Virus record (IMG/VR): IMGVR_UViG_3300031992_000005
Span: 256,001-320,000 of that record
Source: a virus
Length of the DNA: 64,000 nucleotides
Strand: one strand, 5' to 3'
The notes below the pieces were generated by a model. It was not told the DNA's origin. It ran no database searches and saw nothing but the letters and a program-made list of their open reading frames with translations. The translations under genes were made by a program, and so were the position numbers. Every line of letters begins with the position of its first letter. The first letter of the stretch is position 1. Below, piece after piece: positions 6,829 to 22,666 of this stretch.

Positions 6829-8115
6829 ATGGAAGTACGTGTGAGATGTTGTGGTGTTGGACCCCAGTCTTTCGCATCAGACGGTTCTCACATAAGTGAA
6901 GAGGTAGTTAGACAGTACTTAAACTCAGAAGACTATAGACTTTCTATTGACGGTAAGTTAACGATGGGTTATCTTACTCACAGGGGAAGATCGATCGAAT
7001 TCTTACCTAGCTCTATTGGTAATCCTGGAGTAAAAAAGGTAATTGGTAGAGATGATGCAGGTCTTTGTGTTGGTGAAAATCTTCCTACTTTTACACACTA
7101 TGTGAAAGAATTTTACATCGAAGATGTTCCGGGTCAAGGTCCTTGGCTTTGTGCATTGGTACATATTTTTGATGAGAAGGATGGGTTTGATCAAATTGCA
7201 ACAGAAAATATTAAGCGATTAAAAGCTCTTATTCGGAGTGGTGTTCGTCTTACCTGCTCATTAGTAGTTCTTGCTTTCTGGTCTTCTGAAAATGGTAATG
7301 GAGTAGATGAGTGTAAGAAGATTAAGGCAATTAAGAGTCTGGATTGGACTGTTAATCCTAGTTTTGGCCCATTAGCTCGTATTACCGAAGTCTATGACGA
7401 TGACCAACCTATGAAGGATGACCTTATTAAAACTTTTTCTGAGGTAGAGGGAGACAGTGATTTTATTAAGTCTCAGCCTAACAAGGAAGGTGAAATTAAG
7501 GTTAAGGTATACTCAGACCTAAGTAGTTTCGGAGATATGCCAAAAACTTCGAAGATTGGCGGTAGATTTACTGAATTAAAGGCAAAAGAATTTTCTAGTG
7601 TATGTACGATTACAGTAGATTCCTCTTCACCAGCAGTACAGAAAGAATTTACAGTTGCTACTATAAAAGAGCGTGTAAGATATGCTAAGTTTTCTCCAAG
7701 AATGAGATTTAGAAGATTATTCTTGGAATATAAGCAGTACGTTAAGCAATCGGGGGGTGCAGATAAGATCGATCCTGAGACGCTTAAAATTTTAAAGTCG
7801 CTCTTCTTATCTGATATTAATCAGATCTTCACGGGTCTTACTTCAGAAATTATTGCCGGAAAGCAGATTAATACACTCATTGGTGCAGCTTCTCTAGGTA
7901 AAGGTGTTAGACAGGCAGCTCAAAAATTACAGCTACCTTATAGAATGGCTTTCCAGGAGATGCAGAAAACTGGTAAAATTACTCCAATGAGATTTGAAAA
8001 GATTAAGACTGCTTATACAGAATTTTCTAAGGCAATGGTTGAGGAGGTATTTGGTGAGGGTCCTATCCCAGAAGGTTTGGAAGAAGAAATTAAAAATGAG
8101 GAGGGAAAACAATGA
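6829..8115 (+). CDS. Prohead serine protease (HK97/S78-like N-terminal domain) with C-terminal scaffold-like extension
   Basis: It sits between the terminase and the scaffold/capsid genes. The N-terminal ~190 aa follow the S78 pattern: candidate His in GYLTHRGRS, DDAGLCVGENL, and candidate Ser in IRSGVRLTCSLVVLAF. The C-terminal half is helical/charged with several K-x-F-S/T motifs. Confidence 0.45.
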   Translation: MEVRVRCCGVGPQSFASDGSHISEEVVRQYLNSEDYRLSIDGKLTMGYLTHRGRSIEFLPSSIGNPGVKKVIGRDDAGLCVGENLPTFTHYVKEFYIEDVPGQGPWLCALVHIFDEKDGFDQIATENIKRLKALIRSGVRLTCSLVVLAFWSSENGNGVDECKKIKAIKSLDWTVNPSFGPLARITEVYDDDQPMKDDLIKTFSEVEGDSDFIKSQPNKEGEIKVKVYSDLSSFGDMPKTSKIGGRFTELKAKEFSSVCTITVDSSSPAVQKEFTVATIKERVRYAKFSPRMRFRRLFLEYKQYVKQSGGADKIDPETLKILKSLFLSDINQIFTGLTSEIIAGKQINTLIGAASLGKGVRQAAQKLQLPYRMAFQEMQKTGKITPMRFEKIKTAYTEFSKAMVEEVFGEGPIPEGLEEEIKNEEGKQ

Positions 8116-8966
8116 AAAGATTAAAGATTTTCTCTAGTCCAGATCGCATTATTTTCCCTAGAAGGAAAATTTTCTCAGGAGATGCTCCAACAAATGAAGG
8201 TGGAATGGTATTAAGAGAACTGGTTTGTAGAGACTGTGGTACAGTTATTACCTCTTCTCAGCATCCAAGTCATGCGATTTGCCCTAATTGTGGAGGTACT
8301 CGCCTCGATATTAAGTTTTTATCACCAAGACAAGATACCGAAAGAGATCCACATAAAGAAGAGAATATTAAGCCAGAGGAGTATAGAAAGCCTATCTTTG
8401 GTGATGCAGAATATCAAAAGAGTCTTAGGGAATTCAGCGGAAAAACTATTCCAAAGTCTACTTTTGAAAAAAGATTTTCTGAAACACAGGCAGAGGGCTT
8501 AATAGAGAAGGGATTTGCTACGGTTGAGGGTGATTATGTAATTATTGATCCTATCAGCTATGAAGCAGAGAAGACATTCTCTAAATTGATTATATCAGTA
8601 ACTAAAACACTAGAGTTAGATCCTGATATAGTTAGCGGAAAGATTGATAGAAGTAGTGTGATCGATCATCTGGAGGAGGATCATAGACTGCCAGAGAAAG
8701 GAATTATGGTTATCAAGAAGGCTCATGGGCTACCACTTGAGAGTCATATGTTCTGCGAGGATTCTTGGGTAGAAGATTCTGGCATTATTCCAGATCTTGA
8801 ACTAGAATATAATAATCAAAGTTTTGGCGTAGATCAATTTCTATCGATCCTACATGACCGTTATCCAGATGCCCCAGAGAATATTTTAGATATTCTTATA
8901 AAAGAGGGTGTTGTTCGATTAGACGGTACTCAAGTAACAATTCAGAGTAATAGTATTAAAAACTAA
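8112..8966 (+). CDS. Zinc-ribbon protein of the head module
   Basis: ATGA overlap with the upstream gene. Contains CRDCG-x15-CPNCGG. The N-terminus has two leader-like copies (RLKIFSS, RRKIFSG). Confidence 0.55.
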   Translation: MKRLKIFSSPDRIIFPRRKIFSGDAPTNEGGMVLRELVCRDCGTVITSSQHPSHAICPNCGGTRLDIKFLSPRQDTERDPHKEENIKPEEYRKPIFGDAEYQKSLREFSGKTIPKSTFEKRFSETQAEGLIEKGFATVEGDYVIIDPISYEAEKTFSKLIISVTKTLELDPDIVSGKIDRSSVIDHLEEDHRLPEKGIMVIKKAHGLPLESHMFCEDSWVEDSGIIPDLELEYNNQSFGVDQFLSILHDRYPDAPENILDILIKEGVVRLDGTQVTIQSNSIKN

Positions 8967-8969
8967 AAT

Positions 8970-11759
8970 ATGAAAAATACTCGTTTTATGGAAGCTATGT
9001 TCTCCAATACTGATGAAGAACTAGCAAAGCAGGTAGATAGTGACATTAAGTCTGCTCAGGCAGGTAATGTTGTTGATACCGATGAAGTGAAATATGAAAG
9101 AACCGGAAATGGCAATGATGTTGCTATTACCGATAAGGCTAATGGTGAAGTAACTATTGCTCAAAAGAGTGCTGACGAAGCTGATACCTATGACCTCATC
9201 GCTGTTCCGGATGAACAACTGGAAAAGTATGTTCACCCGTCTTCTGATGGAGTTACTCCAGGTAATCAGGTTGGTGCTCCAGATGAGTATTTTAAGACTC
9301 ACCTTGATGGACGTTCTGTTATTTCTCCAAATCTTCCAGATGGAGGTTTAAATCCAGACGCCGGACACGAAAGAAGCGTGACCGAAGTAGATGATGAGCA
9401 TCAGGATGCTTGTCCTGCCTGTGGTCAGAGTCCTTGCGAATGTGAAGAAGAGGGTAGAGAGTTTTCAGTAACTTCCGACAATGATGCTTGGCAGAAGATT
9501 TTCTCCATGCCACAAGAATTCGTAGACTATCTCTTCAGTGAAGTTATCGAATCTGAGGAAACTTCTAAGGTAGGTGACCTGAAAGTAGAGAAGTTGGCTG
9601 ATGAAGATAATGCGGTTATCGTTACTAGCGAATCAACTGGTGATCAGGTTAAAGTTAAATTAGAAGGAGACGAAATGGAAGTTACAGAACTTAACAGTAA
9701 GAGTTTTAGCAACGATGAGCAATTCATGCCATTGTTTGTTATAGGCGTTCAGCCTTATGACCATATCATTGTAGATGCACAGGAATATGGTCAGGAAAGT
9801 GCAGAGGAATTAAAGGCACAGCTTGAAGAGGATGGTGTAGAGGCAGTTCAGATTTTTGATAATCAGGATGAAGCTCGTGAATATGCTATTAATCTTCTTA
9901 ATAATCTAGGTGCTAATCCGGCTGCAGGTGATGTAGATGAACCAGAACTACAGAAGGAATATAGTGAAGCAGTAGGTTCTACAGTTTATACTACATCATA
10001 TAGAACAGATGACAGTGTTTTAATGAGTCGTATGTTCTCTGAGGAAGCTCTCGGTGTAGCAGATACTCAGGACACTGTAGAAGACGCAATTAAGTCTGGT
10101 CAAGAGACCGATATGGATGGCGCAATCGTTATTCCAGTAGATGCTACTAATGCAATTATTCAGGATGGTGATGAATTTACTAAGGCTACTTTGAATGGTG
10201 AAGATATGATTCTTGAAAATATCGATCCAGAAGAAGCACAGGCTATTCTAGGCGATTCTGATATAATGGAATATGAGGCATACGATGATGACGAGGATGA
10301 TTACGACGATGAAGAAGAAAGGGATTATTCTGACATTTATACGGATGAGTATGGAACTAAGTTCTTCTCTGAATACGAAGACTTCACCGATTATATGGAA
10401 AGACTCTTCTCTGATGAATCTGACCAAGAGCATATTGAGGATGCTATTGAGAATGGTGAGGAAATCGAGAATGAAACTGAAATCATCACACCAGTTAGCG
10501 CAACCACTGCAGTAGTAGAGGATAAGGAAACTGGTGAGTTTACTAAGGCTGTTCTTGATGACGGTACTATTGATGTTCATCCAATCGATAAGGGTGAAGC
10601 AAATGAGTTAATCAAGGACATCAAGGTAGAGGATGAAGTTGATGACGACGAGGAAGACGAAAAGGAATACTCTGATATTTATACGGATGATACAGAAACT
10701 AGATTCTTCTCTGGAGATGAAGAGTTTACAGACTATATGGAAAGACTCTTTACAGGTGAATCTGATCAAGACGTTATCGAAAGTGCTATCGAAGGCGGTC
10801 AGCAGGTAGAAAATGAAGAAGAAATTATTACTCCTGTCGACAGAAAGACTGCTGTCGTAGAAGATAAGGGTAATGGCGAATTCTCTAAGGTAACTATTCT
10901 CAATGATGATCAAATTAATGTTCATCCAATATCTGAAGATGAAGCTGATGAACTTACTGGTGATCTAGTAGTAGACGATGAAGAGGAAGTTGAACCTGAG
11001 CAGGGTGAATTCTCTGATATTTACACAGATGAAACAGAAACTAGATTCTTCTCTGAATATGAAGACTTCACTGATTACATGGAAAGACTCTTTACTGGTG
11101 AAGCAGATGAGGAACTTATAGAGAATGCTATCGAAGATGGTCAGCAAGTAGAAAATGACGGTGAGGTAATCACCCCAGTTGACTCTAAGACTGCAATAGT
11201 AGAAGATAAGAAAACTGGTGAATTCACTAAGGCAATTCTCAGTGATGATGACATCGACGTAGAACCTATCTCTGAGGAAGAGGCTAATGAGCTCACTGAA
11301 GATCTTAAAGTAGAGAATACTAAGGAAGAAGATGATGAAAGAAAGTTCTCTGAGAACAATGAACTTCTCGCTAGATTCTTTGCAGATGCAGGTATTCAGC
11401 AAGCACAGCCACAACAGGCAGTAGCCGCTCAGCCAGTTGCTGCAGCTCCAGCAGAGCAGGCAGCTGTAGACCCTAATGCAGTTCCAGTAGACCCTAATGC
11501 AGTTCCAGCTGAAGAAGGTGCTCCTGCTCCAACAGTAGAAAACATTGAAGATAAGGCTCTCGCTGCAATTCAGAGCATTAAGGCTGCAGTAGAAGAGGGT
11601 GCTGCTCAGATTATGGAGGCTAAGGCTGCTCCAGCTCCAAATGCAGAACCACAGATTCAGGAAGCTCAGTTCTCTGATTTCGAGTACTATGACGACGATG
11701 ATGATCAAAGAACATTCAGTGAGAATGATACCTTAATCTCTTGGCTAGCTAATAAATAA
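8970..11759 (+). CDS. Highly acidic repeat protein, scaffold-like (function inferred from position)
   Basis: 929 aa, visibly D/E-rich, immediately upstream of the capsid gene. It has three 114-aa tandem units plus degenerate copies, a Cys knuckle CPACGQSPCEC, and an A/P/Q-rich C-terminal region. Confidence 0.45.
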   Translation: MKNTRFMEAMFSNTDEELAKQVDSDIKSAQAGNVVDTDEVKYERTGNGNDVAITDKANGEVTIAQKSADEADTYDLIAVPDEQLEKYVHPSSDGVTPGNQVGAPDEYFKTHLDGRSVISPNLPDGGLNPDAGHERSVTEVDDEHQDACPACGQSPCECEEEGREFSVTSDNDAWQKIFSMPQEFVDYLFSEVIESEETSKVGDLKVEKLADEDNAVIVTSESTGDQVKVKLEGDEMEVTELNSKSFSNDEQFMPLFVIGVQPYDHIIVDAQEYGQESAEELKAQLEEDGVEAVQIFDNQDEAREYAINLLNNLGANPAAGDVDEPELQKEYSEAVGSTVYTTSYRTDDSVLMSRMFSEEALGVADTQDTVEDAIKSGQETDMDGAIVIPVDATNAIIQDGDEFTKATLNGEDMILENIDPEEAQAILGDSDIMEYEAYDDDEDDYDDEEERDYSDIYTDEYGTKFFSEYEDFTDYMERLFSDESDQEHIEDAIENGEEIENETEIITPVSATTAVVEDKETGEFTKAVLDDGTIDVHPIDKGEANELIKDIKVEDEVDDDEEDEKEYSDIYTDDTETRFFSGDEEFTDYMERLFTGESDQDVIESAIEGGQQVENEEEIITPVDRKTAVVEDKGNGEFSKVTILNDDQINVHPISEDEADELTGDLVVDDEEEVEPEQGEFSDIYTDETETRFFSEYEDFTDYMERLFTGEADEELIENAIEDGQQVENDGEVITPVDSKTAIVEDKKTGEFTKAILSDDDIDVEPISEEEANELTEDLKVENTKEEDDERKFSENNELLARFFADAGIQQAQPQQAVAAQPVAAAPAEQAAVDPNAVPVDPNAVPAEEGAPAPTVENIEDKALAAIQSIKAAVEEGAAQIMEAKAAPAPNAEPQIQEAQFSDFEYYDDDDDQRTFSENDTLISWLANK
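10320..11345 (+). repeat. In-frame tandem repeat, 3 x 342 nt (114 aa), inside the acidic protein
   Basis: Units start at 10320, 10662 and 11004 (RDYSDIYTDEYGTKFFSEYEDFTDYMERLFS / KEYSDIYTDDTETRFFSGDEEFTDYMERLFT / GEFSDIYTDETETRFFSEYEDFTDYMERLFT). More degenerate copies lie upstream, around 9510-10260. Confidence 0.85.
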
Positions 11760-11787
11760 TAACTATTAAAATAATTAATATAATAAT

Positions 11788-13239
11788 ATGACTGATTTTT
11801 CGTATCTCATGAGTAATCCTGACATGCAGGTTGCTCTTAGAAATAGTTCAGTATCTGCAGAAGATGCTGCAATTCGTGGTAGAGAATATGCAAAGATGTT
11901 CTCTCGTAATGCGGAGATGTTGGATACTCTCGGTATGGGCCGTAATTCTAACCTCCTTCAGAAGACTTTCTCTGGCTATGCAGAGACTCCACTTCTTAGC
12001 ACTCAGTATTTTAATGCATCTGTTGCTTCTTATGTAAGCTCTTTTGCAGGTTACATGAGTATTGAACGTGACTTCGACCAGCCTAATGGCTTGTTCTATT
12101 GGTTCGATGTTCTTGGTGTAACAGACCTTCGTCCAGTTATTCCTAACCTCGGTCCAGATAACTATCAGGATATTCAGACTATGGGTTACTTCGAGCTTGA
12201 CAATCAGATCGAAGCTAGCGGTAGCTATGCTCCAATCGTTGGTCGTAAGTTGATCCCAGGTACAGTACGAGTTAAGATCGTTAACAATGATGATACTAAG
12301 TCTGAACTCGTAGATGACGGTCAGGGTCACTTCATGGCTGTTCCAGGCGTACTTGATGCTGCAACGGACGCTACAATCAACTATCTCAGTGGTAATATTA
12401 CCTTTAAGCTTGCAAACCCAGCAGTAAAATCTGTTAAGGTCGTAGGTAAGGAAGATGTAACTGGTACTCCTAGTTGCACAACTGGTACTGCAAGTACTCA
12501 TGCAAATGACAAGCGTTTCATCGCTAAGATGCAGCAGCTTGGTCTTAGCACAGTTCCTGATATGCTCGTAGCTGAATATAACATTGCAGCTCTCGGCGCA
12601 CTCAAGAAGGCAACTGGCTCTGATATGGCTACATTCTTGTTCACTAAGCTTCGCGAGATCTATACTAAAACTATCAACTATAAGCTGGTAACTACTCTTG
12701 AGAATGGTTATACCGGTAACACTATTGATGATCTTGATCTTTCTAATGGTCCTACTTCTGGTCTTGCTCAGAATTTCTACGATTATCGTTCTCGTGTAGA
12801 CCTCTTTGACTCTTTCTTGATCAACGTTGAGTCTGCACTCGCTACAAAGGCAGTTAAGGGCGTTAAGACCACTGCTTATGTTGCAGGTAATCGTGCAAGT
12901 AACCAGTTCCAGAAGGGTGGTATCATCGGTAAGTGGGAATCTAACACTAAGATGTCTTATATCAATGACCTCCTTGGCTGGTACAATGGTATTCCAGTAC
13001 TACGGAGTACAGATATTGCAGAGGAAGATGGCGAAGGTACATTCTACGCTATTCACAAGACTGCTGATGGTCAGATGGCTCCACTTGCACGTGGTATCTA
13101 TATGCCTTTGACTGATACTCCAACTATTGGTAACTACAACAACCCTACTCAGATGGCTGCTGGTATCTACTACCAGGAAGGTGTTCGAGTAATGGCTCCT
13201 GAACTTGTTCAGAAGGTTACATTCAAGGTTGGTTTCTAA
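11788..13239 (+). CDS. Major capsid protein (candidate)
   Basis: 483 aa, directly after the protease and scaffold-like genes. Codon choice looks biased toward CGT/CTT/GGT/C-ending codons relative to neighbours, suggesting high expression. A strong hairpin terminator lies downstream. No family-level motif was recognised by eye. Confidence 0.6.
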   Translation: MTDFSYLMSNPDMQVALRNSSVSAEDAAIRGREYAKMFSRNAEMLDTLGMGRNSNLLQKTFSGYAETPLLSTQYFNASVASYVSSFAGYMSIERDFDQPNGLFYWFDVLGVTDLRPVIPNLGPDNYQDIQTMGYFELDNQIEASGSYAPIVGRKLIPGTVRVKIVNNDDTKSELVDDGQGHFMAVPGVLDAATDATINYLSGNITFKLANPAVKSVKVVGKEDVTGTPSCTTGTASTHANDKRFIAKMQQLGLSTVPDMLVAEYNIAALGALKKATGSDMATFLFTKLREIYTKTINYKLVTTLENGYTGNTIDDLDLSNGPTSGLAQNFYDYRSRVDLFDSFLINVESALATKAVKGVKTTAYVAGNRASNQFQKGGIIGKWESNTKMSYINDLLGWYNGIPVLRSTDIAEEDGEGTFYAIHKTADGQMAPLARGIYMPLTDTPTIGNYNNPTQMAAGIYYQEGVRVMAPELVQKVTFKVGF

Positions 13240-13290
13240 TCCTAGGAATTAATTTCCCTTAAGTATTATATAGGATTAATATAATATAAA

Positions 13291-13340
13291 GGAGAGGAAT
13301 TCTTTTGGTTAATGCTGAAAGTTTTCCTCTCCACTTTTAA
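13291..13340 (+). terminator. Rho-independent terminator after the capsid gene
   Basis: GGAGAGGAA (13291-13299) pairs with TTCCTCTCC (13324-13332), 9 bp, followed by ACTTTTAATT. Confidence 0.6.
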
Positions 13341-13423
13341 TTGTAATATATAAATATTAGGTTATATAAGTGTCGAACTTAAATTAATTTAATTTTCTAA
13401 CTATTTAGAATAAATTTTTATTT

Positions 13424-14506
13424 ATGCCTAATGAGATAATATATAAAGGGCTTCGCTTAGTAACTGATTGTAAATATTTTCAAGTAAAAGAGGGAGCTAT
13501 TAATTCTATGATGGAGGACCCAGTTACCTCTACTTTGAAGATTACCTATTCTCCAGGGAATACAGCGAAATCCTTATCAAATTCCTTAGGCATACCAGTA
13601 GTAGGAAAGGGTGATCAACAAATGGAGTCAATGAGTACTCCATCTAGAATTAAGTACACCTATCTTACAATAAATGGACTGAAACTTAAGAAGATATCCT
13701 ATGGATCACATATATTCAATATGATTATCGTGGATGACTGTGAATCTAGGGTAGTTCAAAGTACAGGTTATACTACAATAGTAGTTTCAAAAGATGACTA
13801 TAAAAATCCAGAATTTATAAATTTTTTATTTTATTCTGGGAATCTCTTATATCTTAAGCCTGAGGGACAGAAAATTCAAGGTTACCAGATAAGGAATTTT
13901 CCAAAGATTTTAATAAAGGATTCTAATATAACAGTTGAATCCGAAAATATAAATATATATACTCTTCGGCGAAGATATAACGATTACTTAATAAGGGCAA
14001 TAGATTATCAAGACCAATTCCTATTGGAAATACGTAGAATTTTAGATGATTATGGCATAGAATTAGTTAGAACTAATAAAGAAACGACTCTATCTAAAAC
14101 ATCATATGTTACGTATCAATTAAATCAGACTCCAATAGAATATCAGCACCCGGGACGGAACGATTATATCAGACAGATATTACCTAGAAAATTACCTATA
14201 GAATTTTCATTACATTCGACTGACATGGTTTTATTTCATGATTTTAAAAATAAATTTATAAATGTAAATTTATTAACAAATTTTACAGAATTTAAAACTA
14301 TGGATAATGCAGGAGATAAATGGTCCGCAGCTATTAAGTGGGGGCAAATAACAGAAGATTTTAACCACGTTTATCAGCCGGATGATAATTCTAACTTTGC
14401 CTTACAATGTCAATTTAGGTGTGAATTATACTTCTACGAAGTATTAGATACGAGGCATGAGTTTCTAAAAGACATATTAACTAGAATAGAAGCTACTGAA
14501 AAATAG
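13424..14506 (+). CDS. Hypothetical protein (possible head/neck component)
   Basis: 360-aa intact ORF after the capsid terminator. No leader and no recognisable motif. Confidence 0.5.
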   Translation: MPNEIIYKGLRLVTDCKYFQVKEGAINSMMEDPVTSTLKITYSPGNTAKSLSNSLGIPVVGKGDQQMESMSTPSRIKYTYLTINGLKLKKISYGSHIFNMIIVDDCESRVVQSTGYTTIVVSKDDYKNPEFINFLFYSGNLLYLKPEGQKIQGYQIRNFPKILIKDSNITVESENINIYTLRRRYNDYLIRAIDYQDQFLLEIRRILDDYGIELVRTNKETTLSKTSYVTYQLNQTPIEYQHPGRNDYIRQILPRKLPIEFSLHSTDMVLFHDFKNKFINVNLLTNFTEFKTMDNAGDKWSAAIKWGQITEDFNHVYQPDDNSNFALQCQFRCELYFYEVLDTRHEFLKDILTRIEATEK

Positions 14507-14518
14507 ATCAAATGGGAT

Positions 14519-14905
14519 ATGATTACATTTAAGAGGAAAACATTTGAAACTGATATGATTCCGGAAGCTATTAAGCACCTAGAGTCTGAAAAGATAGATT
14601 TTAATGTTATTTCCCAAAAAGAAGCGGAAGCCGCTAGCAAAGTGAATGCTAAATCTATGGTTCTCATGTCTTTTGTTAAAACAGAGAAAGGATTTTACCA
14701 GATTACGGTTAAAGATAAGGAGTTTTATAATTACACTAAAAAACTCTTAAGTGATCCTAACTATTGTAGAATGAGAATCGTAGATGAAGACAAAAATAAG
14801 AGAACTGTTACTGTAGAAACAAATCACCTAGGCATAGTCCTAGATGTGATTGAGATCTTAGGTATCAAATACAATTTATCTATAGTAAAGAATGATAAAG
14901 TTTAG
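14519..14905 (+). CDS. Leader-tagged hypothetical protein
   Basis: N-terminus MITFKRKTFETD. Confidence 0.55.
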   Translation: MITFKRKTFETDMIPEAIKHLESEKIDFNVISQKEAEAASKVNAKSMVLMSFVKTEKGFYQITVKDKEFYNYTKKLLSDPNYCRMRIVDEDKNKRTVTVETNHLGIVLDVIEILGIKYNLSIVKNDKV

Positions 14906-15575
14906 ACAAAAGATCTTCTCTGAATATGATGCAATGAGAAGTCTTTATGTAGAAATTATGAAACGAACGAAGGGAGATAAAAAGAAATTTCCTGTTATAA
15001 CTACAAGCGAACTACCTGCTATTCTTAGAGGAAATAACGTAGTAGTCGAGCGTTTCGTAATTAGTACGTCCTTTTTTAATAAGGATAAGTATAGAATGTA
15101 TATTAAAATAGGGGCAAAAGCAAAATTACCTGATGAAGTGAGATTGCCTGGAGCATACTATGAAAAGAGGATAGCGAATACCAAGCTTAATCTAAATCCA
15201 GCAATAATGTATCCTAAACCTTTTGATGATCGACAACAAAGTCAACCGAACGGTAATGGTAACGGTAATGGTAACCAAAACAATCCAAGAAGACAAGGCC
15301 AAAGACAAAAGGAACAATCTGATGTTGGACCATTATTAGGAGGATTAGTTCAGAAGGAATTTGGTAAAGATAAAATTTTTCCTTATTTATCTGCTAATGT
15401 AGATCCTTATGTGGATTTATCTTATACAGTTCACAAACTCCTAGGAGAAGCAATTAAGTATGATAAGAAAGCAAGAACGTTGGTCCTTGAATTTGACTCT
15501 ATCTCAGATGCCATAGATGCCCTTAATGTCTTACCATTTGGAATAAATTACAATATTTATCTATTGAATGCATAA
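14892..15575 (+). CDS. Leader-tagged hypothetical protein with NG low-complexity tract
   Basis: N-terminus MIKFRQKIFSEY. Contains QPNGNGNGNGNQNNPRRQGQRQ, encoded by an AACGGT/AATGGT repeat near 15250-15276. Confidence 0.6.
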   Translation: MIKFRQKIFSEYDAMRSLYVEIMKRTKGDKKKFPVITTSELPAILRGNNVVVERFVISTSFFNKDKYRMYIKIGAKAKLPDEVRLPGAYYEKRIANTKLNLNPAIMYPKPFDDRQQSQPNGNGNGNGNQNNPRRQGQRQKEQSDVGPLLGGLVQKEFGKDKIFPYLSANVDPYVDLSYTVHKLLGEAIKYDKKARTLVLEFDSISDAIDALNVLPFGINYNIYLLNA

Positions 15576-15800
15576 ATGATCTTATTGCGAAATAGAAATT
15601 TCTCTGGAACTAATATATTAAACACTAGTGGTGTTACCGGATTTATTAGGGGAAGAAAGTATGACACTGACTTAGATAGATTAGGTAGGATGAATACATC
15701 TCACAGAGAGATGACTAGAGTAGGTGATTTATCCAGAGAAATGAGAGAAATGTCTTCTGAATTAAATAGGGGACTTAGACAGAAAGATTTAAGAGATTAA
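15576..15800 (+). CDS. Leader-tagged small arginine-rich protein
   Basis: N-terminus MILLRNRNFSGT. Confidence 0.5.
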   Translation: MILLRNRNFSGTNILNTSGVTGFIRGRKYDTDLDRLGRMNTSHREMTRVGDLSREMREMSSELNRGLRQKDLRD

Positions 15801-15804
15801 TAAT

Positions 15805-16107
15805 ATGGCAACATACAGACTAAAGAGAAAAACCTATGGAATAGCAGAAGCTGCTAGTAATACTCTAGGTGGTGTAGTAGGTGGTACCGGTAAAGCCCTA
15901 GACTCAACTCCTGCTGCAATGGCCGGTGGTTTAGCTGGAGGTCACTTTATTGGTGGAGCAATTACAAGTGGTCTTGCATCTACGGGAGTCCTTGGATCAG
16001 CCCTAGCCGGACCACTGGGATGGATAGTAGGTGCTGGTATTGGTGCAGCTGCTACAAGAGGACTTGGTAAAGGTCTTAAGAATGCTGCTAACGAACTACA
16101 ATCCTGA
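15805..16107 (+). CDS. Glycine-zipper protein with extended leader variant
   Basis: N-terminus MATYRLKRKTYGIA. Almost entirely GxxxG/A repeats (GGVVGGTG, GGLAGGHFIGGAITSGLASTG, GWIVGAGIGAAATRGLG). Confidence 0.6.
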   Translation: MATYRLKRKTYGIAEAASNTLGGVVGGTGKALDSTPAAMAGGLAGGHFIGGAITSGLASTGVLGSALAGPLGWIVGAGIGAAATRGLGKGLKNAANELQS

Positions 16108-16125
16108 TAAATAATAGGCAACGTA

Positions 16126-17295
16126 ATGATTAAGTTTAGACAAAAAAATTTTGTAATTCCATTGGCTGCAGCTACAATTCCACTTACAGTGGCATCTACG
16201 GCATTACCTATGATACAGGCTAGTAAGCAGGGAAAAGAAGCTAAAGAGCAAGCAGAACAAAATGCTATGCTAATGGAAAAACAAAATGCATTAATTAAAC
16301 AGCAAAACAGACAAATTGAAAAACTAGCTATGAAAAATCCTCGTGCATCTGCAGAATTTGGACGAATAAAACAGGCAACGTATTCAGTTGGATCTACACT
16401 GATGGGAATAGGACGTGCAGGTAAAGCTGCCTTTGGGTCAGGATTAAAAGGCAATATAGTATCCGGTTTAGGCATTGCAGGAACTACATATGCCGCAGGA
16501 AAATATATAAGTCATGACATGAAAAAGCAAGGACTTGATTATGATCAGAATGGAAATCTTGTCTCCGCTACTGCACCTTCTCCAACAACCAAAAGCTATT
16601 CAGATCCAGTCACTAGTGCCACAGGTACCGTTGCAAAAAAATCTTTCAAAAATAGAATACTAGGTGGTTTTGGTAAAGTAGGTTCTGCAGTACTTATGGG
16701 AGGGGGACCGGATCTAATGGGATATCACGCTGATAAAAAAGCATTAAGGGATCAGGTAGCAGCAACACAGAGTATGCAACAATCCCCACAAATGACTACA
16801 TATTCATCCACTTCAGTAAAAATATCTAGGCCAAAGAATAGACCTACGCAAAAAAATTTTGCACTAAATCCTATGGGATTGGTAAAATCTGTCATGCCAA
16901 AAGCTGGTTCTATGAACTTAACTGGATCCATAAGATCTCTGGGGACTAAAATGAGTAACATGAGGACGGATTGGGCTAAAAACTGGAAAACAAAAACTAC
17001 AGGCGGTCTTTCATCTCTTACAAGCTTTGGCTTAGGTGGAACAGAGAGTGTTCAAAAATTTGGGCAAAGCTTAAAAAATGAGGGAGGTTCATTAGCAAAA
17101 GTAGGAAACTGGATAGAAAAACATCCAGCTAGAGCTAATTTAGCTTCGACTGTTCCTCTTGCGGCAGCTGCATCTCTAACATGGGATGGAACAGTCAAGG
17201 CAGGAAATGCTATAGGCAAGAAAGTAGATCCATCCGCTTATAAATATAAAGATGCTAAAGCAAAACTTGAACAGCAACAACTACAACAGTATTAA
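16126..17295 (+). CDS. Leader-tagged protein with N-terminal hydrophobic segment
   Basis: N-terminus MIKFRQKNFVIP, followed by LAAATIPLTVASTALPMI and a coiled-coil-like QNAMLMEKQNALIKQQNRQIEKL. Confidence 0.6.
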   Translation: MIKFRQKNFVIPLAAATIPLTVASTALPMIQASKQGKEAKEQAEQNAMLMEKQNALIKQQNRQIEKLAMKNPRASAEFGRIKQATYSVGSTLMGIGRAGKAAFGSGLKGNIVSGLGIAGTTYAAGKYISHDMKKQGLDYDQNGNLVSATAPSPTTKSYSDPVTSATGTVAKKSFKNRILGGFGKVGSAVLMGGGPDLMGYHADKKALRDQVAATQSMQQSPQMTTYSSTSVKISRPKNRPTQKNFALNPMGLVKSVMPKAGSMNLTGSIRSLGTKMSNMRTDWAKNWKTKTTGGLSSLTSFGLGGTESVQKFGQSLKNEGGSLAKVGNWIEKHPARANLASTVPLAAAASLTWDGTVKAGNAIGKKVDPSAYKYKDAKAKLEQQQLQQY

Positions 17296-17300
17296 TTATT

Positions 17301-17705
17301 ATGATCTTATTCAGAAAATATTTTACCCAATGGGATGAAACGGACCAGCTTAAGGGGATGAAAGATTCTGATATATTGGCAGAGAAGAAAAGAAGTACGT
17401 CCTCGCTTGGACCTATGGTCGGCTCAGGCTTGGTGGGTGCATCTATTGGAGGTATTACCGGCGCAGTAAGTGGTGCCATTTCTGGCAGAGGTGCACGAAT
17501 CGCTACTGCAGGTAAAGTGGCTAAAAAGGGTGCAATCTTAGGTGCTGGTATAGGGGCTGCTACTGCTTATCTAAGGAATAAGAAAAAAGCAGATGAAAAC
17601 AAATTCTATAATCAGCGACTTGAATATGCTCAACGTCAAGCCTTAAGAAGAGAGCGAAAGGACTGGAAAACTAACATGACCCAGAGAGATGGCTATTCGT
17701 ACTAA
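17301..17705 (+). CDS. Leader-tagged glycine-zipper protein
   Basis: N-terminus MILFRKYFTQWD. Contains GSGLVGASIGGITGAVSGAISG and GAILGAGIGAATAY. Confidence 0.6.
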   Translation: MILFRKYFTQWDETDQLKGMKDSDILAEKKRSTSSLGPMVGSGLVGASIGGITGAVSGAISGRGARIATAGKVAKKGAILGAGIGAATAYLRNKKKADENKFYNQRLEYAQRQALRRERKDWKTNMTQRDGYSY

Positions 17706-17985
17706 AGCAAAATCAGTGTTGAGTTACGTAAATAAGAACCCAGCATTGATATCTATTCCCGCACTAGGAATTGCGGGAACAAACTTAGCAGTAAATGTTA
17801 ATAAACAAAATAAAAATATTGAATTACAGGGACAACAACTTAAAGCAATGAATAACTTAACAAAATCATTGAATAATGTTGATGGAACTATAAAGAAAAG
17901 TATTAATAATACTGGGACAGTAAAACCTGAACAGAAGAGAGATGGAAGTATTTTATCCAATCTTTTTAATAAAAACAAAAGATAG
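17689..17985 (+). CDS. Small membrane-type protein with weak leader
   Basis: N-terminus MAIRTKAKSVLS. Hydrophobic NPALISIPALGIAGTNLAV. Overlaps the upstream gene by 17 nt. Confidence 0.45.
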   Translation: MAIRTKAKSVLSYVNKNPALISIPALGIAGTNLAVNVNKQNKNIELQGQQLKAMNNLTKSLNNVDGTIKKSINNTGTVKPEQKRDGSILSNLFNKNKR

Positions 17986-17987
17986 CA

Positions 17988-18230
17988 ATGGAAGAGAATG
18001 AAGTTGAAGTTGTAGTTAATGACTTTCTTTCGTCAGCCGACGATCTATTAAAGAATGAGAACTCTACGTTTGTGACTAGAACTGCACAAAGAGTTGAGCT
18101 CGATTATGAGGTACCTGTAAATAAGGATCTCGTAGGTGAACCTATTCATGCAGGTATTTGGGATGAAACATTGGGTGAGGTAGTATCTTCTGTTTCCAAT
18201 GAAGAAACAGAACCTGAGCCTGGACAGTAA
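17988..18230 (+). CDS. Small acidic hypothetical protein (no leader)
   Basis: 80-aa ORF, E/D-rich, followed by a hairpin terminator. Confidence 0.45.
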   Translation: MEENEVEVVVNDFLSSADDLLKNENSTFVTRTAQRVELDYEVPVNKDLVGEPIHAGIWDETLGEVVSSVSNEETEPEPGQ

Positions 18231-18245
18231 ATCCATAAAATAATC

Positions 18246-18276
18246 AGGGAAATTAATTTCCCTTACTGAGATTTTT
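18246..18276 (+). terminator. Palindromic hairpin plus T-run
   Basis: AGGGAAATTAATTTCCCT is a perfect palindrome (18246-18263), followed by TACTGAGATTTTT. Confidence 0.5.
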
Positions 18277-18960
18277 ATGATAAAATTTAAACGAAAAGAG
18301 TTTAGTAATTATATTTTATCTAATACTATAAAAGGGGCAAGCATTGGTGCTACTATAGGTACTGGAATGGCTGGTTTGAACTTATCTGATAATATGAGGG
18401 GAGATAATTGGTTTGCAAGAACATATAATAGTCAGGCCAGAAATAGCAATGATAGAAGTTACCCCAAACAAACCACCAACCAAAAACTCCTTATTGCTGC
18501 TGCAGGTACCCTAATCGGAGCTGCTCTTGGTGCTATTGTAGGTACTGTCAAGGCTGTTACAGAAAAAACATCTCAGCATGGTACTGATCATAGACTTCTT
18601 AAAGATGTAATGAAAACATTAAGTTCCCTAGGTTACAAAGAAGGTATTGACTATACAAGAGATCCTGAAACTGCAAATAGGCTAAAAACAAGGGTTTGTC
18701 TGGTTATTACAAGAGATGCAGCTAATATCTCCCTCCTAGTAAATATGGTGAATGATAATAAGCTCTCTAAGGATGCAGATAAAATTCTTAGAAGTTTACC
18801 AGGAAAACCTCAGATAAGATATAGTAGAACAACTGATAAATATAATGACATTACAATCTCTACTATTTCTAAGTCCGGCTCAAATGCAGACTTAGTGACG
18901 AATATAGTAGATGGATTTATTAAAGCAGGTTATCCAGTTTACCTAGTTGAAGTAGGATAA
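18277..18960 (+). CDS. Leader-tagged protein with two glycine-rich hydrophobic segments
   Basis: N-terminus MIKFKRKEFSNY. Contains GASIGATIGTGMAGL and LLIAAAGTLIGAALGAIVGTV. Confidence 0.6.
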   Translation: MIKFKRKEFSNYILSNTIKGASIGATIGTGMAGLNLSDNMRGDNWFARTYNSQARNSNDRSYPKQTTNQKLLIAAAGTLIGAALGAIVGTVKAVTEKTSQHGTDHRLLKDVMKTLSSLGYKEGIDYTRDPETANRLKTRVCLVITRDAANISLLVNMVNDNKLSKDADKILRSLPGKPQIRYSRTTDKYNDITISTISKSGSNADLVTNIVDGFIKAGYPVYLVEVG

Positions 18961-19002
18961 AGGATAACAAAAAACATGTTAAAAACTATTTAAAACATAA
19001 AT

Positions 19003-21228
19003 ATGGCACAGTGGAAAGAAACTCTTGAACCCTATATTAGAGTTCATGAGAAAATTAAGGTTGCAGCACTTAACCCAGTAGCAGGTGAAGATTTAATCAT
19101 CGGGTGTGCATTTATTTCCGATGCAGGACCATCTCTACCTACACTTATTACTAGTCAGAAGGAATTCTTAGAGACTTATTCTTCTCAGGATATTACCGAG
19201 GATTATATTACTAGTCTCGATGATTTCTATACAAACGCTACGACAGGTGGTGATCCTCATCTAGGATCTACTATGTGGCTTAATGCATATCGTTTGGCTG
19301 GTTCTAATACTCTCTTGGCAGTGCGTGCAACAAAAGCAAAGGACCTTTATTACGCTAAGACAAGCGCTTACCCTAACGACGATTATATAGTACGTGATGG
19401 GCAAGTATTAAAGAAGATAAACGTAGGTGACGGATTAAAGATTTGTTACGATAGCGATGAAGATAGTGCAGACTGGAAGAAATTAGGTTGGGCTATTAAA
19501 CTAAGAAATATCGGTATAGTAGGTAACCTAGTAACTGAAGATGGAGTTAAATATGATTATTACGTAGATAATTTGTTTGACCTAGTTGAATATCTCAATG
19601 ATACTAGTGTATTCTTTAGTCCTAATTATGAATTTCACGACAATATTAATCAGGATGACGGAACACCCCAAACCCCAAGTACAACTAAAATATCAGAAGA
19701 TGCACTTCGAAACGGTGACAAGGAGAAAAATACTGTAAAAGCAGTAGTATTTAAGGAACTTTACTTAGGTAGTCGTATCCTAGATGCACTCGACCTTACC
19801 GGCTCAACTACTGAAGAAAGCAATGCTGAATATGGACTCATGAACATAATAGTTGGTCAATCTACTTGGACATCAGGTAATGAGTCACAGCCAGTTATTG
19901 CACTAAATGATGCAAATCATTCAGGTTTTGATCAGAAGAGTACTCTTGATAAAGGCTATGTAACTAACGTGTATAATTCAGCTACTAAGCTAGAAGTTAG
20001 AATTAGACGTTTTAATCATGATGCTGTAGCTACTAAACAGTTAACTAAACCAGATTCTAGTAGGGGCGGAAATTCTCCATATACAGTAGTATTACCTAAT
20101 TCTCTTTCGGCTTTAAACGTAAAGAGGGATTTTTACGAAATTGCCGTTTTTGATCCAAGTGTTAGTGGAGAATCCTTGTATTTTAACCTAGGTACTGTAC
20201 TGAGCTTAGGTGATATGGAATTAGTTGATATAAATAATTCCCTTAAGATGGTACAGATAACTTTGCCTGATAAACTTAGTGATCTTGGATTAGATTATTA
20301 TGGCTCAGCAGGTTCTACTCAGGAGTACTATTACGATTTAAAGCTAGATCCCGATAACACATCTCTTCTAGATGTATCCAACTCTGATATACTCAAGGCA
20401 TTAGATCAGATTCCTCTTAACGAAGTTTATACTGTAGAGGGACTCACTGACCTTGGTTGTACAGAGCCAATGGTTCAGTCTTACATGGCTAATATGGCTA
20501 TTAACGATAACTTCTTCTATCCAATTTCAACAGTTAATAGCACAAACTACTTAGCTATCGCTAATTCTATCCTACGTATTAGTCAGGATTTCTATAAGCT
20601 GTATGCAAGTGCACCTTGGGACGTGGATACTGGCACAATGGGTTGGAAGTTCTATTGCTCACCTAGTGTTCTTTACTGGGAAACCGTAGGTAGAAACAGA
20701 CGTCTTGGTAGAGAGTTTGCTCCAGTTCTTGGTCAGACTAATGGTATTGCACAATATCAGAAGCCTGTAGCTGAATTCAATAAGAAGACCCGTCAGCTAC
20801 TCCTTTCTAAGAAGATCAATACTGTTCTTTGGGATGTTCAGACTCAAGCTTGGGATTGGAACGACAACTATACAAAGCAGACTGAAAACAACATTATGTC
20901 TGATGAGGCTAATAGCCGCCTGATGATTCGTATTAGCAAGGCTATGCCAGTACTTCTCCGTCAGTTTATTGGTAGAAGAATTGGTGCTGTCCTTTGGAAT
21001 GACATGTATAATGTAATCGACTACTGGTTTAAGACTACTATTCTAGGCATGACTTATACAATTGATGGTTATAGAATTACAATTGATGAGTCTAACAATA
21101 CCCCAGAAGATGCTCGTGCAAATCGAGTGAACGTCTTAGTGGAAGTTCGTTATCAGAGAGCTGCTAAGTATATTGAAGTTTATAACAACGCATTCGACGT
21201 TGGTATGGAATTCGACGGCATTATGTAA
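19003..21228 (+). CDS. Tail sheath protein paralogue 1 (T4 gp18-like)
   Basis: 741 aa. The N-terminal pattern ITSQKEFLETYSS ... WLNAYRLAGSNTLLAVRATKAKD parallels T4 gp18 NEVDLVNTFG ... NFLQYGNDLRVVRAVDRD. The C-terminal YRITIDESNNTPEDARANRVNVLVEVRYQRAAKYIEVYN parallels gp18 YRVVCDTTNNTPSVIDRNEFVATFYIQPARSINYITLNF. Confidence 0.7.
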   Translation: MAQWKETLEPYIRVHEKIKVAALNPVAGEDLIIGCAFISDAGPSLPTLITSQKEFLETYSSQDITEDYITSLDDFYTNATTGGDPHLGSTMWLNAYRLAGSNTLLAVRATKAKDLYYAKTSAYPNDDYIVRDGQVLKKINVGDGLKICYDSDEDSADWKKLGWAIKLRNIGIVGNLVTEDGVKYDYYVDNLFDLVEYLNDTSVFFSPNYEFHDNINQDDGTPQTPSTTKISEDALRNGDKEKNTVKAVVFKELYLGSRILDALDLTGSTTEESNAEYGLMNIIVGQSTWTSGNESQPVIALNDANHSGFDQKSTLDKGYVTNVYNSATKLEVRIRRFNHDAVATKQLTKPDSSRGGNSPYTVVLPNSLSALNVKRDFYEIAVFDPSVSGESLYFNLGTVLSLGDMELVDINNSLKMVQITLPDKLSDLGLDYYGSAGSTQEYYYDLKLDPDNTSLLDVSNSDILKALDQIPLNEVYTVEGLTDLGCTEPMVQSYMANMAINDNFFYPISTVNSTNYLAIANSILRISQDFYKLYASAPWDVDTGTMGWKFYCSPSVLYWETVGRNRRLGREFAPVLGQTNGIAQYQKPVAEFNKKTRQLLLSKKINTVLWDVQTQAWDWNDNYTKQTENNIMSDEANSRLMIRISKAMPVLLRQFIGRRIGAVLWNDMYNVIDYWFKTTILGMTYTIDGYRITIDESNNTPEDARANRVNVLVEVRYQRAAKYIEVYNNAFDVGMEFDGIM

Positions 21229-21240
21229 TTATAATTTAAT

Positions 21241-21285
21241 GGGTAATACCTCATTTTGATGGTGGGGTATTACTCAATTTTTATT
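21241..21285 (+). terminator. Hairpin terminator after sheath paralogue 1
   Basis: GGGTAATACC (21241-21250) pairs with GGTATTACTC (21266-21275), including one G-U pair, followed by AATTTTTATT. Confidence 0.55.
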
Positions 21286-21291
21286 CAATAT

Positions 21292-22089
21292 ATGGATAAG
21301 ACATTATTAGTAGATCTCAAAAAGAAGATGTTCATGAGATCTGCCTTAATCTCCTTAGAGGATTCATTGGATGATGTTCTATCGCTTAGTGCTTCATTGA
21401 CAGCGGATGAGATTCTCCTAGAGATTATCAAAAAAGCTCTAAGGGAATTCGAACTAACTAATCCACTTATCCTTGAAATGCCAATGTCTAGGGAACAGAT
21501 GTTAAGTTGTACTGCTCCCAATGGCTTCCTAGAAGTAAAAAGTAATTTTACTCTATACTTAAAGTGCATGATTCCGGAATATAGGATTATCCTAGTTCCA
21601 GTATCAATGCCATGTTGGAGAGTAGGAGATAATTCTGTAACAACTAATTTCTCCTCTTATATAGGAGGTACTAGTATTCCTCAACCAGGTGCTTATACTT
21701 ACTTTACTGAATATAGAAAACCTTATGTCTTTGTAGGTGACTTAGGCTTATTGCAAGGATTGGGGGGTAGTGGTATTATAATGAAAGGTATTTGTAGCAG
21801 ACCAATAACTCCGGATTGGACAGAAGATAAGAAGTTTAATTCAGCATCGGAAACATCTGCCGTATATTGGATGGATGTAGAGACTGGAGGTGCAAGAGGT
21901 AACTACTTCATGGATCTCTGTATGGTTCATCTCTTAGACTATATCCGTCAATTAAAGGCATCTATTTCACTCAACAATGTATCAGTTGATGTTATGGGTA
22001 ATGTTGATTCAGCTTATCAAGAGCTTCGAAGTAGGTGTGACCAATATGCATTACAATCTGGATGGTATGGCGAACTATTATATAACTAG
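21292..22089 (+). CDS. Hypothetical structural protein
   Basis: The ORF track starts at TTG 21256, inside the terminator hairpin. The in-frame ATG at 21292 (MDKTLLVDLKK) is the more plausible start. Confidence 0.5.
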   Translation: MDKTLLVDLKKKMFMRSALISLEDSLDDVLSLSASLTADEILLEIIKKALREFELTNPLILEMPMSREQMLSCTAPNGFLEVKSNFTLYLKCMIPEYRIILVPVSMPCWRVGDNSVTTNFSSYIGGTSIPQPGAYTYFTEYRKPYVFVGDLGLLQGLGGSGIIMKGICSRPITPDWTEDKKFNSASETSAVYWMDVETGGARGNYFMDLCMVHLLDYIRQLKASISLNNVSVDVMGNVDSAYQELRSRCDQYALQSGWYGELLYN

Positions 22090-22092
22090 TAT

Positions 22093-22647
22093 ATGATTAT
22101 ACTCAGACAAAAAGAATATGCTTCGAGATTATTGAAAGCTGTAAGATCAGTCAAACGAGCAGGAAATAGTGCTATGACTGTGATTGACAATGCAGGTTTA
22201 AAAACAGGTAATACTATTAAAAAGTTCGTTACCGGTAAGAGTATTCCTGCACAAGTAGAGGCTAATTTTAAGCCTAAAACCAACTTCCAAATTAACAGAG
22301 AAACGGTTAAAGCAAAAAACGTCGTAAAAGATGCTGCAAACGCAGTTAAAGAACGCCCCGGTGCAGTACTCGATGATGGTATAAGTTTTGCAGCCAAGAA
22401 TCCAATTGCAGCTGCAGGGCAAGTGGGAAGTGTTGCTCTTCCTTTGGCTGATCCAGTATTTTTGGGCGTCCCTATAGGCACGCCTTCAGCTGTTATTGAC
22501 GTAACAGCAAAGAAGTTTATTAAGCCATATGATAAATATACAGAAAGAATTTCAAGAGCATACGATAGATCCAATTTCAGTAGGAATCTTAGAAGAATGC
22601 CTAATGCAACTGAAGTGATTGATAACATAAAGAGGAAATTTAAATAA
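22093..22647 (+). CDS. Leader-tagged hypothetical protein
   Basis: N-terminus MIILRQKEYASR. The mirror ORF on the minus strand (22086..22628) is rejected. Confidence 0.6.
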   Translation: MIILRQKEYASRLLKAVRSVKRAGNSAMTVIDNAGLKTGNTIKKFVTGKSIPAQVEANFKPKTNFQINRETVKAKNVVKDAANAVKERPGAVLDDGISFAAKNPIAAAGQVGSVALPLADPVFLGVPIGTPSAVIDVTAKKFIKPYDKYTERISRAYDRSNFSRNLRRMPNATEVIDNIKRKFK

Positions 22648-22666
22648 TAAACATGAAGAAAGGTGT

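Follow-up and report, generated by a model that had tools for sequence, protein, structure and literature searches.

Why does a single four-residue peptide recur inside the head proteins of an uncultured phage, and what would it do there? This question is raised by a 64,000-nucleotide stretch of viral DNA (hereafter the window; positions 256,001 to 320,000 of the IMG/VR virus record IMGVR_UViG_3300031992_000005), a phage structural region with a G+C content of ~35% in which all genes lie on the + strand. A preliminary description of the window had noticed that the motif [KR]-x-[FY]-S, with which a short N-terminal leader of many genes ends, reappears in the extension of a protease, in a zinc-ribbon protein, in an acidic protein and in the N-terminus of a capsid candidate, and had proposed it as a maturation cleavage site. 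Here we report that the motif is enriched in these four proteins, that its placement is restricted, that it is conserved in their homologues, and that it co-occurs with one protease family. From these observations, we consider it likely that the prohead serine protease encoded by the phage itself recognizes and cuts [KR]-x-[FY(M)]-[S(TAG)], in a scheme like that of T4 gp21 and phiKZ/SPN3US gp245. The head module contains the following genes, in an order that is kept in 78-80 related loci.

6829-8115, + strand: head-maturation protease candidate
8112-8966, + strand: zinc-ribbon protein
8970-11759, + strand: acidic protein, 929 residues
11788-13239, + strand: major capsid protein candidate

The motif is enriched in the head-module proteins

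We counted the strict motif, [KR]-x-[FY]-S, and compared the counts with the means of composition-matched shuffles for single proteins and with composition-based expectations for pooled proteins. The acidic protein contains 13 sites against a shuffle mean of 0.21 and the zinc-ribbon protein five against 0.20, and the fraction of shuffles reaching the observed number was 0 for both. The protease (three against 0.40) and the capsid candidate (two against 0.29) were equaled or exceeded by fractions of 0.0066 and 0.034 of their shuffles, respectively. Pooled, the four head proteins hold 23 sites where 1.07 are expected, and 20 versus 1.01 (Poisson P 2e-19) when the acidic protein is counted with only one of its three tandem repeat units. 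The other 56 window proteins, taken without their first 12 residues, hold 16 sites versus 12.4 expected, and the 22 tail and baseplate proteins (12,238 residues) hold six versus 9.0, so that the enrichment anticipated in the preliminary description, both over shuffles and over tail and baseplate proteins, is real. Two further proteins carry internal [KR]x[FY]S sites, namely a terminase-like protein (3106-4971, + strand; three versus 0.61 expected) and a leader-bearing protein of 535 residues (22667-24274; three versus 0.44), which may be chance occurrences or additional substrates.

The sites are restricted in their placement. Those of the protease fall in residues 196-285, those of the capsid candidate in the first 62 residues, and those of the zinc-ribbon protein in its N-terminal variable two-thirds, while the acidic protein carries them throughout. 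The protease domain, the C-terminal helical domain of the same protein and the predicted mature capsid protein are free of strict or conserved sites.

Every instance listed in the preliminary description is present at its place: KTFSE (201-205), KEFSS (253-257), KEFTV (272-276), AKFSP (287-291) and TEFSK (397-401) in the protease; KIFSS (5), KIFSG (19), REFSG (106), KRFSE (120) and KTFSK (154) in the zinc-ribbon protein; and TDFSY (2-6), KMFSR (36-40) and QKTFS ending at residue 62 (nucleotides 11971-11973) in the capsid candidate. The approximately 18 [FY]-S dipeptides that had been counted by eye in the acidic protein are exactly 18, 13 of them with K or R two residues upstream. A further protease site, KVYSD (226-230), had been missed. 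Among the listed instances, TDFSY of the capsid candidate and AKFSP and TEFSK of the protease are not conserved and are therefore taken as chance.

To define conservation, the four genes were taken from 80 related loci and the distinct sequences aligned (21-31 homologues), a conserved site being scored as [KR]x[FYM][SAGT]. The K, F and S columns of the motif are 97-100% conserved among the distinct homologues, versus 47-67% for the neighboring columns. The related IMG/VR contigs, with capsid-protein identities of 68-100%, are up to 340-400 kb long and were recovered from metagenomes of the gut and of other host-associated habitats; blastn found no DNA-level relatives of positions 6800-13300 among GenBank phages.

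The protease carries the motif in its own disordered linker

The product of 6829-8115 is divided as follows (all on the + strand), with model confidence given as the predicted local distance difference test (pLDDT).

6829..7413, + strand: protease domain, residues 1-195 (pLDDT mostly 75-91; zero K-x-F-S sites inside)
7414..7683, + strand: disordered linker, residues 196-285, with four conserved motif sites
7429-7440, 7504-7515, 7585-7596 and 7642-7653, + strand: linker sites KTFS, KVYS, KEFS and KEFT, respectively, assigned by conservation
7684..8115, + strand: C-terminal helical domain, residues 286-428 (all-helical, pLDDT ~90; conserved in homologues)

The AlphaFold2 (AF2) model, with a mean pLDDT of 76, contains a well-predicted alpha/beta domain (about residues 1-190) and a confident helical domain (about 276-428), and the pLDDT drops below 50 at residues 193-231 and 256-275 of the linker. 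Among homologues of 37-72% identity, the linker differs in sequence as well as in length, and KTFS, K-x-[FY]-S at 226, LKAKEFS and QKEF[ST] stand in it as islands. All four sites are kept in 21 of 21 homologues, with the motif columns 100% conserved versus 48% for the other linker columns. AKFS at 288 and TEFS at 399 belong to the conserved helical domain, and the homologues do not retain them as motifs.

A search of the model with Foldseek against BFVD matched 'Peptidase U9, T4 prohead protease' (E 1.8e-8), a capsid maturation protease (6e-5) and COG3740 (5e-4), each with a probability of 1.0, as well as prohead core scaffold/protease proteins. The whole-chain template modeling scores of these matches are low because of the extra domains. 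The models thus support placing the 6829-8115 product in the prohead-protease fold class. The label 'S78-like' that had been attached to it is not supported by sequence, since neither a Pfam S78 match at E ≤ 10 nor a PHROG match was found and only the fold class is common to the two. Likewise, tblastn with the protease and a profile search of its sequence against the Protein Data Bank (PDB) gave no match.

Nine residues (D18, S20, H51, R54, D76, S144, W151, D172 and T174) are invariant in 32 of 32 diverse protease homologues. Among them, H51 and S144, with His before Ser, are a candidate catalytic pair as judged from this alignment. H90 was also considered as the catalytic histidine and was ruled out, as it is not invariant in distant homologues. 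Cleavage of the linker probably releases the C-terminal helical domain, which may serve as a module that binds the scaffold or the capsid. In many relatives of ~360-400 kb (loci L023-L058; for example, L024 5607-6260 and L031 5471-6259), the open reading frame of the protease is split or truncated, with the N-terminal part missing or an early end at ...GKNVRK.

The motif marks the boundary between the variable and near-invariant parts of the capsid candidate

11788..11973, + strand: candidate N-terminal propeptide of the capsid candidate, residues 1-61/62, with KMFS at 11893-11904 and the boundary site QKTFS at 11962-11973
11974..13239, + strand: predicted mature major capsid protein (tblastn, Foldseek/BFVD)

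In the capsid candidate, the first ~55 residues are variable with insertions and deletions, and a near-invariant sequence starts at residue 56 with NLLQKTFSGYAETPLL. All 30 distinct homologues retain both KMFS (36-39) and QKTFS (58-62) unchanged; QKTFS is followed by the near-invariant NLLQKTFSGYAETPLLSTQYFNASVASY..., and residues 63-483 contain zero motif sites. These features make residues 1-61/62 a predicted propeptide, a candidate for removal on maturation.

The identity of the protein itself is supported by tblastn, which aligned 63% of the query with annotated major capsid proteins at 27% identity (E 7e-7), and by Foldseek/BFVD, whose top matches are major capsid proteins (E 2.9e-14) in spite of a poor AF2 model (pLDDT 49). 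The model is poor because the alignment is shallow, all homologues being at least 72% identical. Profile searches against Pfam, PHROG and PDB gave no sequence match. We therefore regard the 11788-13239 product as a candidate major capsid protein on the basis of these sequence and model matches.

Two scaffold-like proteins carry many conserved copies

8124-8135, 8166-8177, 8427-8438, 8469-8480 and 8571-8582, + strand: motif sites of the zinc-ribbon protein, all conserved
8994-9005, + strand: leader-like N-terminus of the acidic protein, M..TRFMEAMFS, conserved
10311..11336, + strand: three tandem ~114-residue repeat units of the acidic protein, residues 448-789, seen with the units printed in register
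11709-11720, + strand: C-terminal site RTFS of the acidic protein, which together with a QFS site stands before a conserved DTL[IV]SWL tail

The zinc-ribbon protein, whose Pfam matches to zinc-ribbon families (residues 36-67) are weak, opens with two sites that form leader-like N-terminal peptides, MKRLKIFS and RRKIFS. All five of its sites are kept in 28-31 of 31 homologues at 32-51% identity, and the homologues carry extra copies of the motif in lineage-specific insertions (QKEFSE, ENKTFSRR, RKLFSA, QREFSD and EREFSI).

The acidic protein contains ~30% D+E. Its N-terminus (M..TRFMxxMFS) and C-terminus (QEAQFS-EKxFS...DTLVSWL) are conserved in homologues, and 49 of 49 distinct homologues hold 2-18 sites (9-18 in those longer than 600 residues) versus ~0.2 expected. 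Each of the three repeat units opens with [KRG]-[DE]-[YF]-S-DIYTD, followed by T-[KR]-F-F-S and R-L-F-[ST], which gives a motif spacing of 13/14/87-114 residues. An Ala/Pro/Gln-rich segment (residues ~800-900) follows the repeats. The total length of the protein ranges from 623 to 982 residues among relatives, and the number of repeats therefore probably varies.

The motif closes a leader peptide of about 25 genes

About 25 genes within 853..37798 on the + strand open with the leader M-I-I-L-R-x-K-x-[FY]-[SATG], in which the residue after F/Y is, in order of frequency, S>T>A>G. The leader is also found in the related loci.

Leader gene starts, + strand: 853, 1366, 1673, 2507, 4976, 5192, 5539, 6214, 14519, 14892, 15576, 16126, 17301, 18277, 22093, 22667, 32118, 32541, 33470, 34117, 35502, 36504, 37385
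Leader variants, + strand: gene starts 306, 15805, 34757
306-830, + strand: leader-bearing UPF0227 alpha/beta-hydrolase-like protein (E 1.2e-4)
32118-32534, + strand: leader-bearing DUF5856 protein (E 9e-9)
34757-35143, + strand: leader-bearing GNAT acetyltransferase (E 3.6e-7)
37385-37798, + strand: leader-bearing glycine-zipper protein (E 1.7e-6)

The codons of the leader vary synonymously (Ile ATA/ATT/ATC; Leu CTT/CTA/CTC/TTA/TTG; Arg AGA/AGG/CGT/CGA; Ser AGT/TCN). Selection therefore acts on the peptide, and a nucleotide-level signal behind the leader is ruled out.

Besides the proteins listed above, the leader-bearing set includes Gly-rich hydrophobic proteins. This mix of domains resembles packaged or ejected cargo, and the enzymes and membrane-active proteins of the set are candidates for packaging in the head and delivery to the host. 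Two pairs of leader genes are paralogous. The genes at 5539-6132 and 34117-34629 start with MLIKR[NR]VYFSAIDE.. and have a second site ~10 residues downstream (RLYS or RLFS), and the adjacent genes at 35502-36488 and 36504-37346 start with MSLIVRLKRK[ML]FA. It thus seems that cargo genes are duplicated and diversified while their leader stays fixed.

The motif recurs in distant relatives of the protease

A profile search of 1.8 billion representative proteins returned 236 relatives of the protease at E ≤ 1e-3. The 29 full-length distant homologues among them hold 101 motif sites versus 13.9 expected, concentrated at 30-50% of the protein length, and each of the 29 has the motif in its own linker. 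When gapped tetrapeptides were counted in these linkers without bias, K.FS was the most widespread (27 of 29 proteins); among dipeptides, FS was the most frequent. The protease domain closes with the conserved D-[FI]-T-x-N-P-S-F, and the first linker site, which reads K-x-[FYM]-S, usually lies ~10 residues beyond it.

The contigs that encode the distant proteases are short (2-14 kb). On them, the genes beside the protease start with MTKTFS, MGLTKTFS, MSNSLKEMFRTFS, MKLIIRQGNFS, MNIIDKAFS, MSVNKFYS and MQFNIEERQFS. Because K-x-F-S recurs in the distant linkers and in the starts of neighboring genes, the four-residue core, as far as these sequences tell, predates the MIILR part of the leader, is more widely distributed than it and travels with the protease family. 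BLASTP found no homology between the capsid or zinc-ribbon proteins of the window and the genes beside one distant protease (locus L082), and an IMG/VR search with two distant proteases as queries returned no relatives.

Two of these contigs (L081 5880-7298 and L082 11700-13619) encode a large protein that starts with MTKTFS, has 6-12 internal motif sites and ends in a C-terminal DUF5856 domain, which in the window is a separate gene of 138 residues. In each setting the aligned domain is preceded, at a distance of 24-40 residues, by a K-x-F-S site, which belongs to the leader in the window and is internal in L081 and L082; the alignments are weak (E 0.008-0.016). As domain boundaries, internal sites and leaders may thus be interchangeable.

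A scheme for packaging and processing

If the motif is the cut site of the 6829-8115 protease, the observations could be arranged as follows. The ~25 cargo proteins would be brought into the assembling prohead by the hydrophobic/basic front half of their 10-residue leader, of which the last four residues, K-x-F-S, would be the cut site. In the prohead, the protease would cut its own disordered linker at four sites and so free its catalytic domain from the helical C-terminal domain. Many cuts would also fragment the zinc-ribbon protein and the acidic protein of 929 residues, in which every repeat of ~114 residues would be cut at its start. From the N-terminus of the capsid protein the enzyme would take off ~61 residues, and it would cut this propeptide once more at KMFS, after F38.

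What the internal sites have in common with the leaders is limited to the four-residue core, and the context upstream of these sites is acidic rather than hydrophobic/basic. Such a pattern fits a division of labor, with targeting by the MIILR part and cleavage at K-x-F-S. By analogy, the scissile bond is probably K/R(P3)-x-F/Y/M(P1)↓S/T/A/G(P1'); we place the cut between F and S because proteases of the same fold read P3 and P1, often with Ser at P1'. Cleavage after S is a possible alternative.

Several points weigh against this reading. Foldseek of the full protease model against PDB returned only helical-bundle matches (talin and similar) from the C-terminal domain. In Pfam, no family was found for the full protein at E ≤ 0.01, and at E ≤ 10 the protease domains of the window protein and of three distant homologues likewise matched no family; no sequence similarity to the Pfam S77/S78 families or to PDB chains was detectable. 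The capsid model is too poor to place the start of the HK97 fold after residue 62. Several leader genes sit among tail genes (14519-18960, 22093-24274 and 32118-37798), and the head location of their products is assumed. The P3/P1/P1' assignment is made by analogy only. The motif, short, linear and conserved within disordered regions, could also serve for binding instead of cleavage. Finally, literature searches found nothing on phages of this clade, proteomic and biochemical data included, and searches for the leader strings or the motif returned nothing relevant.

Docking, a different enzyme or no function

The alternative that survives best, and which we still regard as unlikely, is that K-x-F-S is a docking peptide that is not cleaved and that loads cargo by binding the capsid interior, the scaffold or the C-terminal domain of the protease, as the cargo-loading peptides of encapsulins do; a cargo protein would then be held by a single copy and the scaffold-like proteins by many. 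Short conserved islands in disordered, acidic segments are typical of binding motifs, the many copies in the acidic protein would give avidity, and the T4 targeting sequence also has a binding role. However, the motif stands exactly at the capsid junction between the variable N-terminus and the near-invariant body and, in distant homologues, ~10 residues after the end of the protease domain, both of which are typical positions of maturation cuts, as seen in SPN3US. The small residue (S>T>A>G) after the aromatic one is typical of P1', and it is hard to explain why a capsid protein would carry its own capsid-docking motif twice. Docking and cleavage are compatible and not exclusive.

Considerably less probable is cleavage by another enzyme, either a host protease or a phage protease encoded outside the window, comparable to the host protease Prp that acts on head proteins of Staphylococcus phage 80alpha. 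The window covers 64 kb of a genome of possibly several hundred kb (relatives reach 400 kb), and the 10-residue leader, ending with an aromatic and then a small residue, is superficially like the N-terminal extension of Firmicute L27. Nevertheless, this explanation is disfavored because the motif fills the linker of the protease family wherever the family is found; its presence in these linkers (29 of 29 distant homologues) and at the N-termini of neighboring gene products is a signature of autoprocessing by that family. Pfam scans of the window detected no Prp-like or other maturation-type protease, the only other peptidase domain being the M23 domain of the 38896-44490 product. L27 is not known to carry a Prp-processed extension in Bacteroides or Phocaeicola. 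Both are predicted hosts of the related Jug phages (PMC12880540).

That the copies share no function at all and reflect composition, tandem duplication in the acidic protein, spread of a leader cassette or a nucleotide signal at gene starts is highly improbable: the three acidic repeats do multiply some sites and three listed instances are chance, but the enrichment persists with the repeats collapsed, sites are conserved where their flanks vary and arise independently in insertions, the leader uses both serine codon families, and the motif also occurs in distant homologues of <50% identity.

In summary, the core of the preliminary description, that a single motif makes the leaders, the protease extension, the scaffold-like proteins and a capsid propeptide of ~60 residues common targets of the head protease, is supported indirectly but strongly by a ~20-fold enrichment in flexible or variable segments, conserved islands, new copies in insertions, the distant linkers and the prohead-protease fold, whereas its 'S78-like' assignment and three of its instances are not supported. 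From this pattern we infer cleavage itself, its assignment to the 6829-8115 enzyme and to the F-S bond, and the targeting of leader-bearing proteins to the capsid.

Surrounding genes

19003-21228, + strand: tail sheath (phrog_23, E 6e-9)
38896-44490, + strand: 1864-residue protein with phage tail lysozyme (E 2.6e-28) and M23 peptidase (E 4.4e-20) domains
47154-47849, + strand: gp5-like spike

The 38896-44490 product, which is probably a tape-measure protein or a tail-associated cell-wall hydrolase, has zero K-x-F-S sites across its 1864 residues. Directly after the gp5-like spike gene, within the baseplate module, a gene at 47860-48849 encodes a protein with a GIY-YIG endonuclease domain (E 1.2e-6) and is probably a homing endonuclease insertion. 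The stop codon of the protease gene overlaps the start of the zinc-ribbon gene in an ATGA at 8112-8115, and the genes at 14519-14905 and 14892-15575 overlap by 14 nucleotides (14892-14905), which suggests translational coupling within the head module.

Comparison with known maturation systems

The kind of system is known. In T4, where the cleavage motif is L/I-x-E, one protease motif likewise closes a ~10-residue leader common to otherwise unrelated proteins, which are packaged in T4 and are predicted cargo here. This capsid targeting sequence (CTS) of ~10 residues is the only conserved part of the diverse internal proteins of T4 (PMC3012670). The two systems further agree in that the motif also occurs in the scaffold, which is gp22 in T4, in the protease and in an N-terminal capsid propeptide of ~60-65 residues, which belongs to gp23 in T4, in the gene order of protease, scaffold-like genes and capsid gene, and in the match of the window protease to the T4 prohead protease fold. 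They differ in that the window motif is K/R-x-F/Y-S and no sequence-level similarity to gp21 is detectable; the window has ~25 leader genes per 64 kb, compared with a handful in T4, a protease with a ~145-residue helical C-terminal domain behind a multi-site linker, and a scaffold-like protein that is a 929-residue acidic repeat protein.

The phiKZ-like jumbo myoviruses (SPN3US gp245, phiKZ gp175) also process many head and ejection proteins at a three-residue motif, with a preference for Ser at P1'. In SPN3US, gp245 shows this preference when it cuts after A-x-E, removes its own C-terminal propeptide and cuts long propeptides repeatedly (PMC10052503). Their motif, however, is A/S/G-x-E, and their propeptides are mostly long (111-254 residues) and share no short leader. 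There, nine substrates are known and 42 head proteins are uncut, whereas in the window a uniform 10-residue leader marks the presumed substrates.

Herpesvirus assemblin cuts V/L-x-A↓S. The likeness of the window protease to assemblin and to HK97 gp4 consists of fold-level matches (COG3740 'phage head maturation protease' and 'capsid maturation protease'), the candidate His before Ser and, by analogy, a specificity at P3 and P1 with Ser at P1'. Unlike HK97, the window has no Pfam S78 match at E ≤ 10 and no long delta-domain-like scaffold in the capsid protein, and its scaffold-like genes are separate.

In Staphylococcus phage 80alpha, the N-termini of capsid and scaffold are removed by the host protease Prp at an L27-like ...F↓A motif. 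A short N-terminal leader with an aromatic and then a small residue, common to head proteins, is thus found in both systems. The enzyme of 80alpha is a host cysteine protease, whereas the window motif co-occurs with a phage-encoded serine-protease family and fills its own linker, and the related phages of the window are predicted to have Bacteroidales hosts.

The Jug phages resemble our system in size and habitat, as relatives of the window with 75% capsid-protein identity lie on gut-metagenome contigs of 340-400 kb. The paper describing them reports a fragmented, divergent prohead protease and fragmented portal genes, and attributes the fragmentation of the protease gene to group I introns or endonuclease insertions (PMC12880540). 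The split protease gene in several relatives of the window matches this report. The reported G+C content of 27-30% differs from the ~35% of the window, and the paper makes no mention of a leader or cleavage motif (PMC12880540).

What is new is the recognition sequence, a very divergent protease family, a uniform leader on ~25 genes and a repeat-built acidic substrate, none of which we found described in the literature searched. The pattern itself is firmly established, and the proposed mechanism is plausible.

Implications

We tentatively put forward a broader claim as a serious possibility, namely that the leader and K-x-F-S form a packaging and processing code of a large group of uncultured jumbo gut phages. 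Proteins with M-I-I-L-R-x-K-x-F-S would be loaded and trimmed, the acidic protein would be a polyprotein diced into ~114-residue modules, and the enzyme would be an assemblin-fold protease with an aromatic P1 and a basic P3, a specificity that has not been described before. As to method, conserved motif islands in variable linkers can reveal the specificity of a protease without experiment.

If the cut-site reading is correct, it would yield, for the first time, a rule of substrate specificity for the head protease in an abundant clade of uncultured jumbo gut phages, the relatives of Jug. The boundaries of mature proteins could then be annotated, and a short tag for loading foreign proteins could be designed, as with the T4 CTS. 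The packaged (ejected) proteome of these phages would be predictable directly from metagenomes through the leader, and on the broader claim ~25 or more packaged, probably injected effectors, including an acetyltransferase and a hydrolase, would be encoded per 64 kb of structural region. The one-motif scheme of T4 and phiKZ, in which leader, scaffold, protease and capsid share a cut site, would have evolved again with a quite different recognition sequence.

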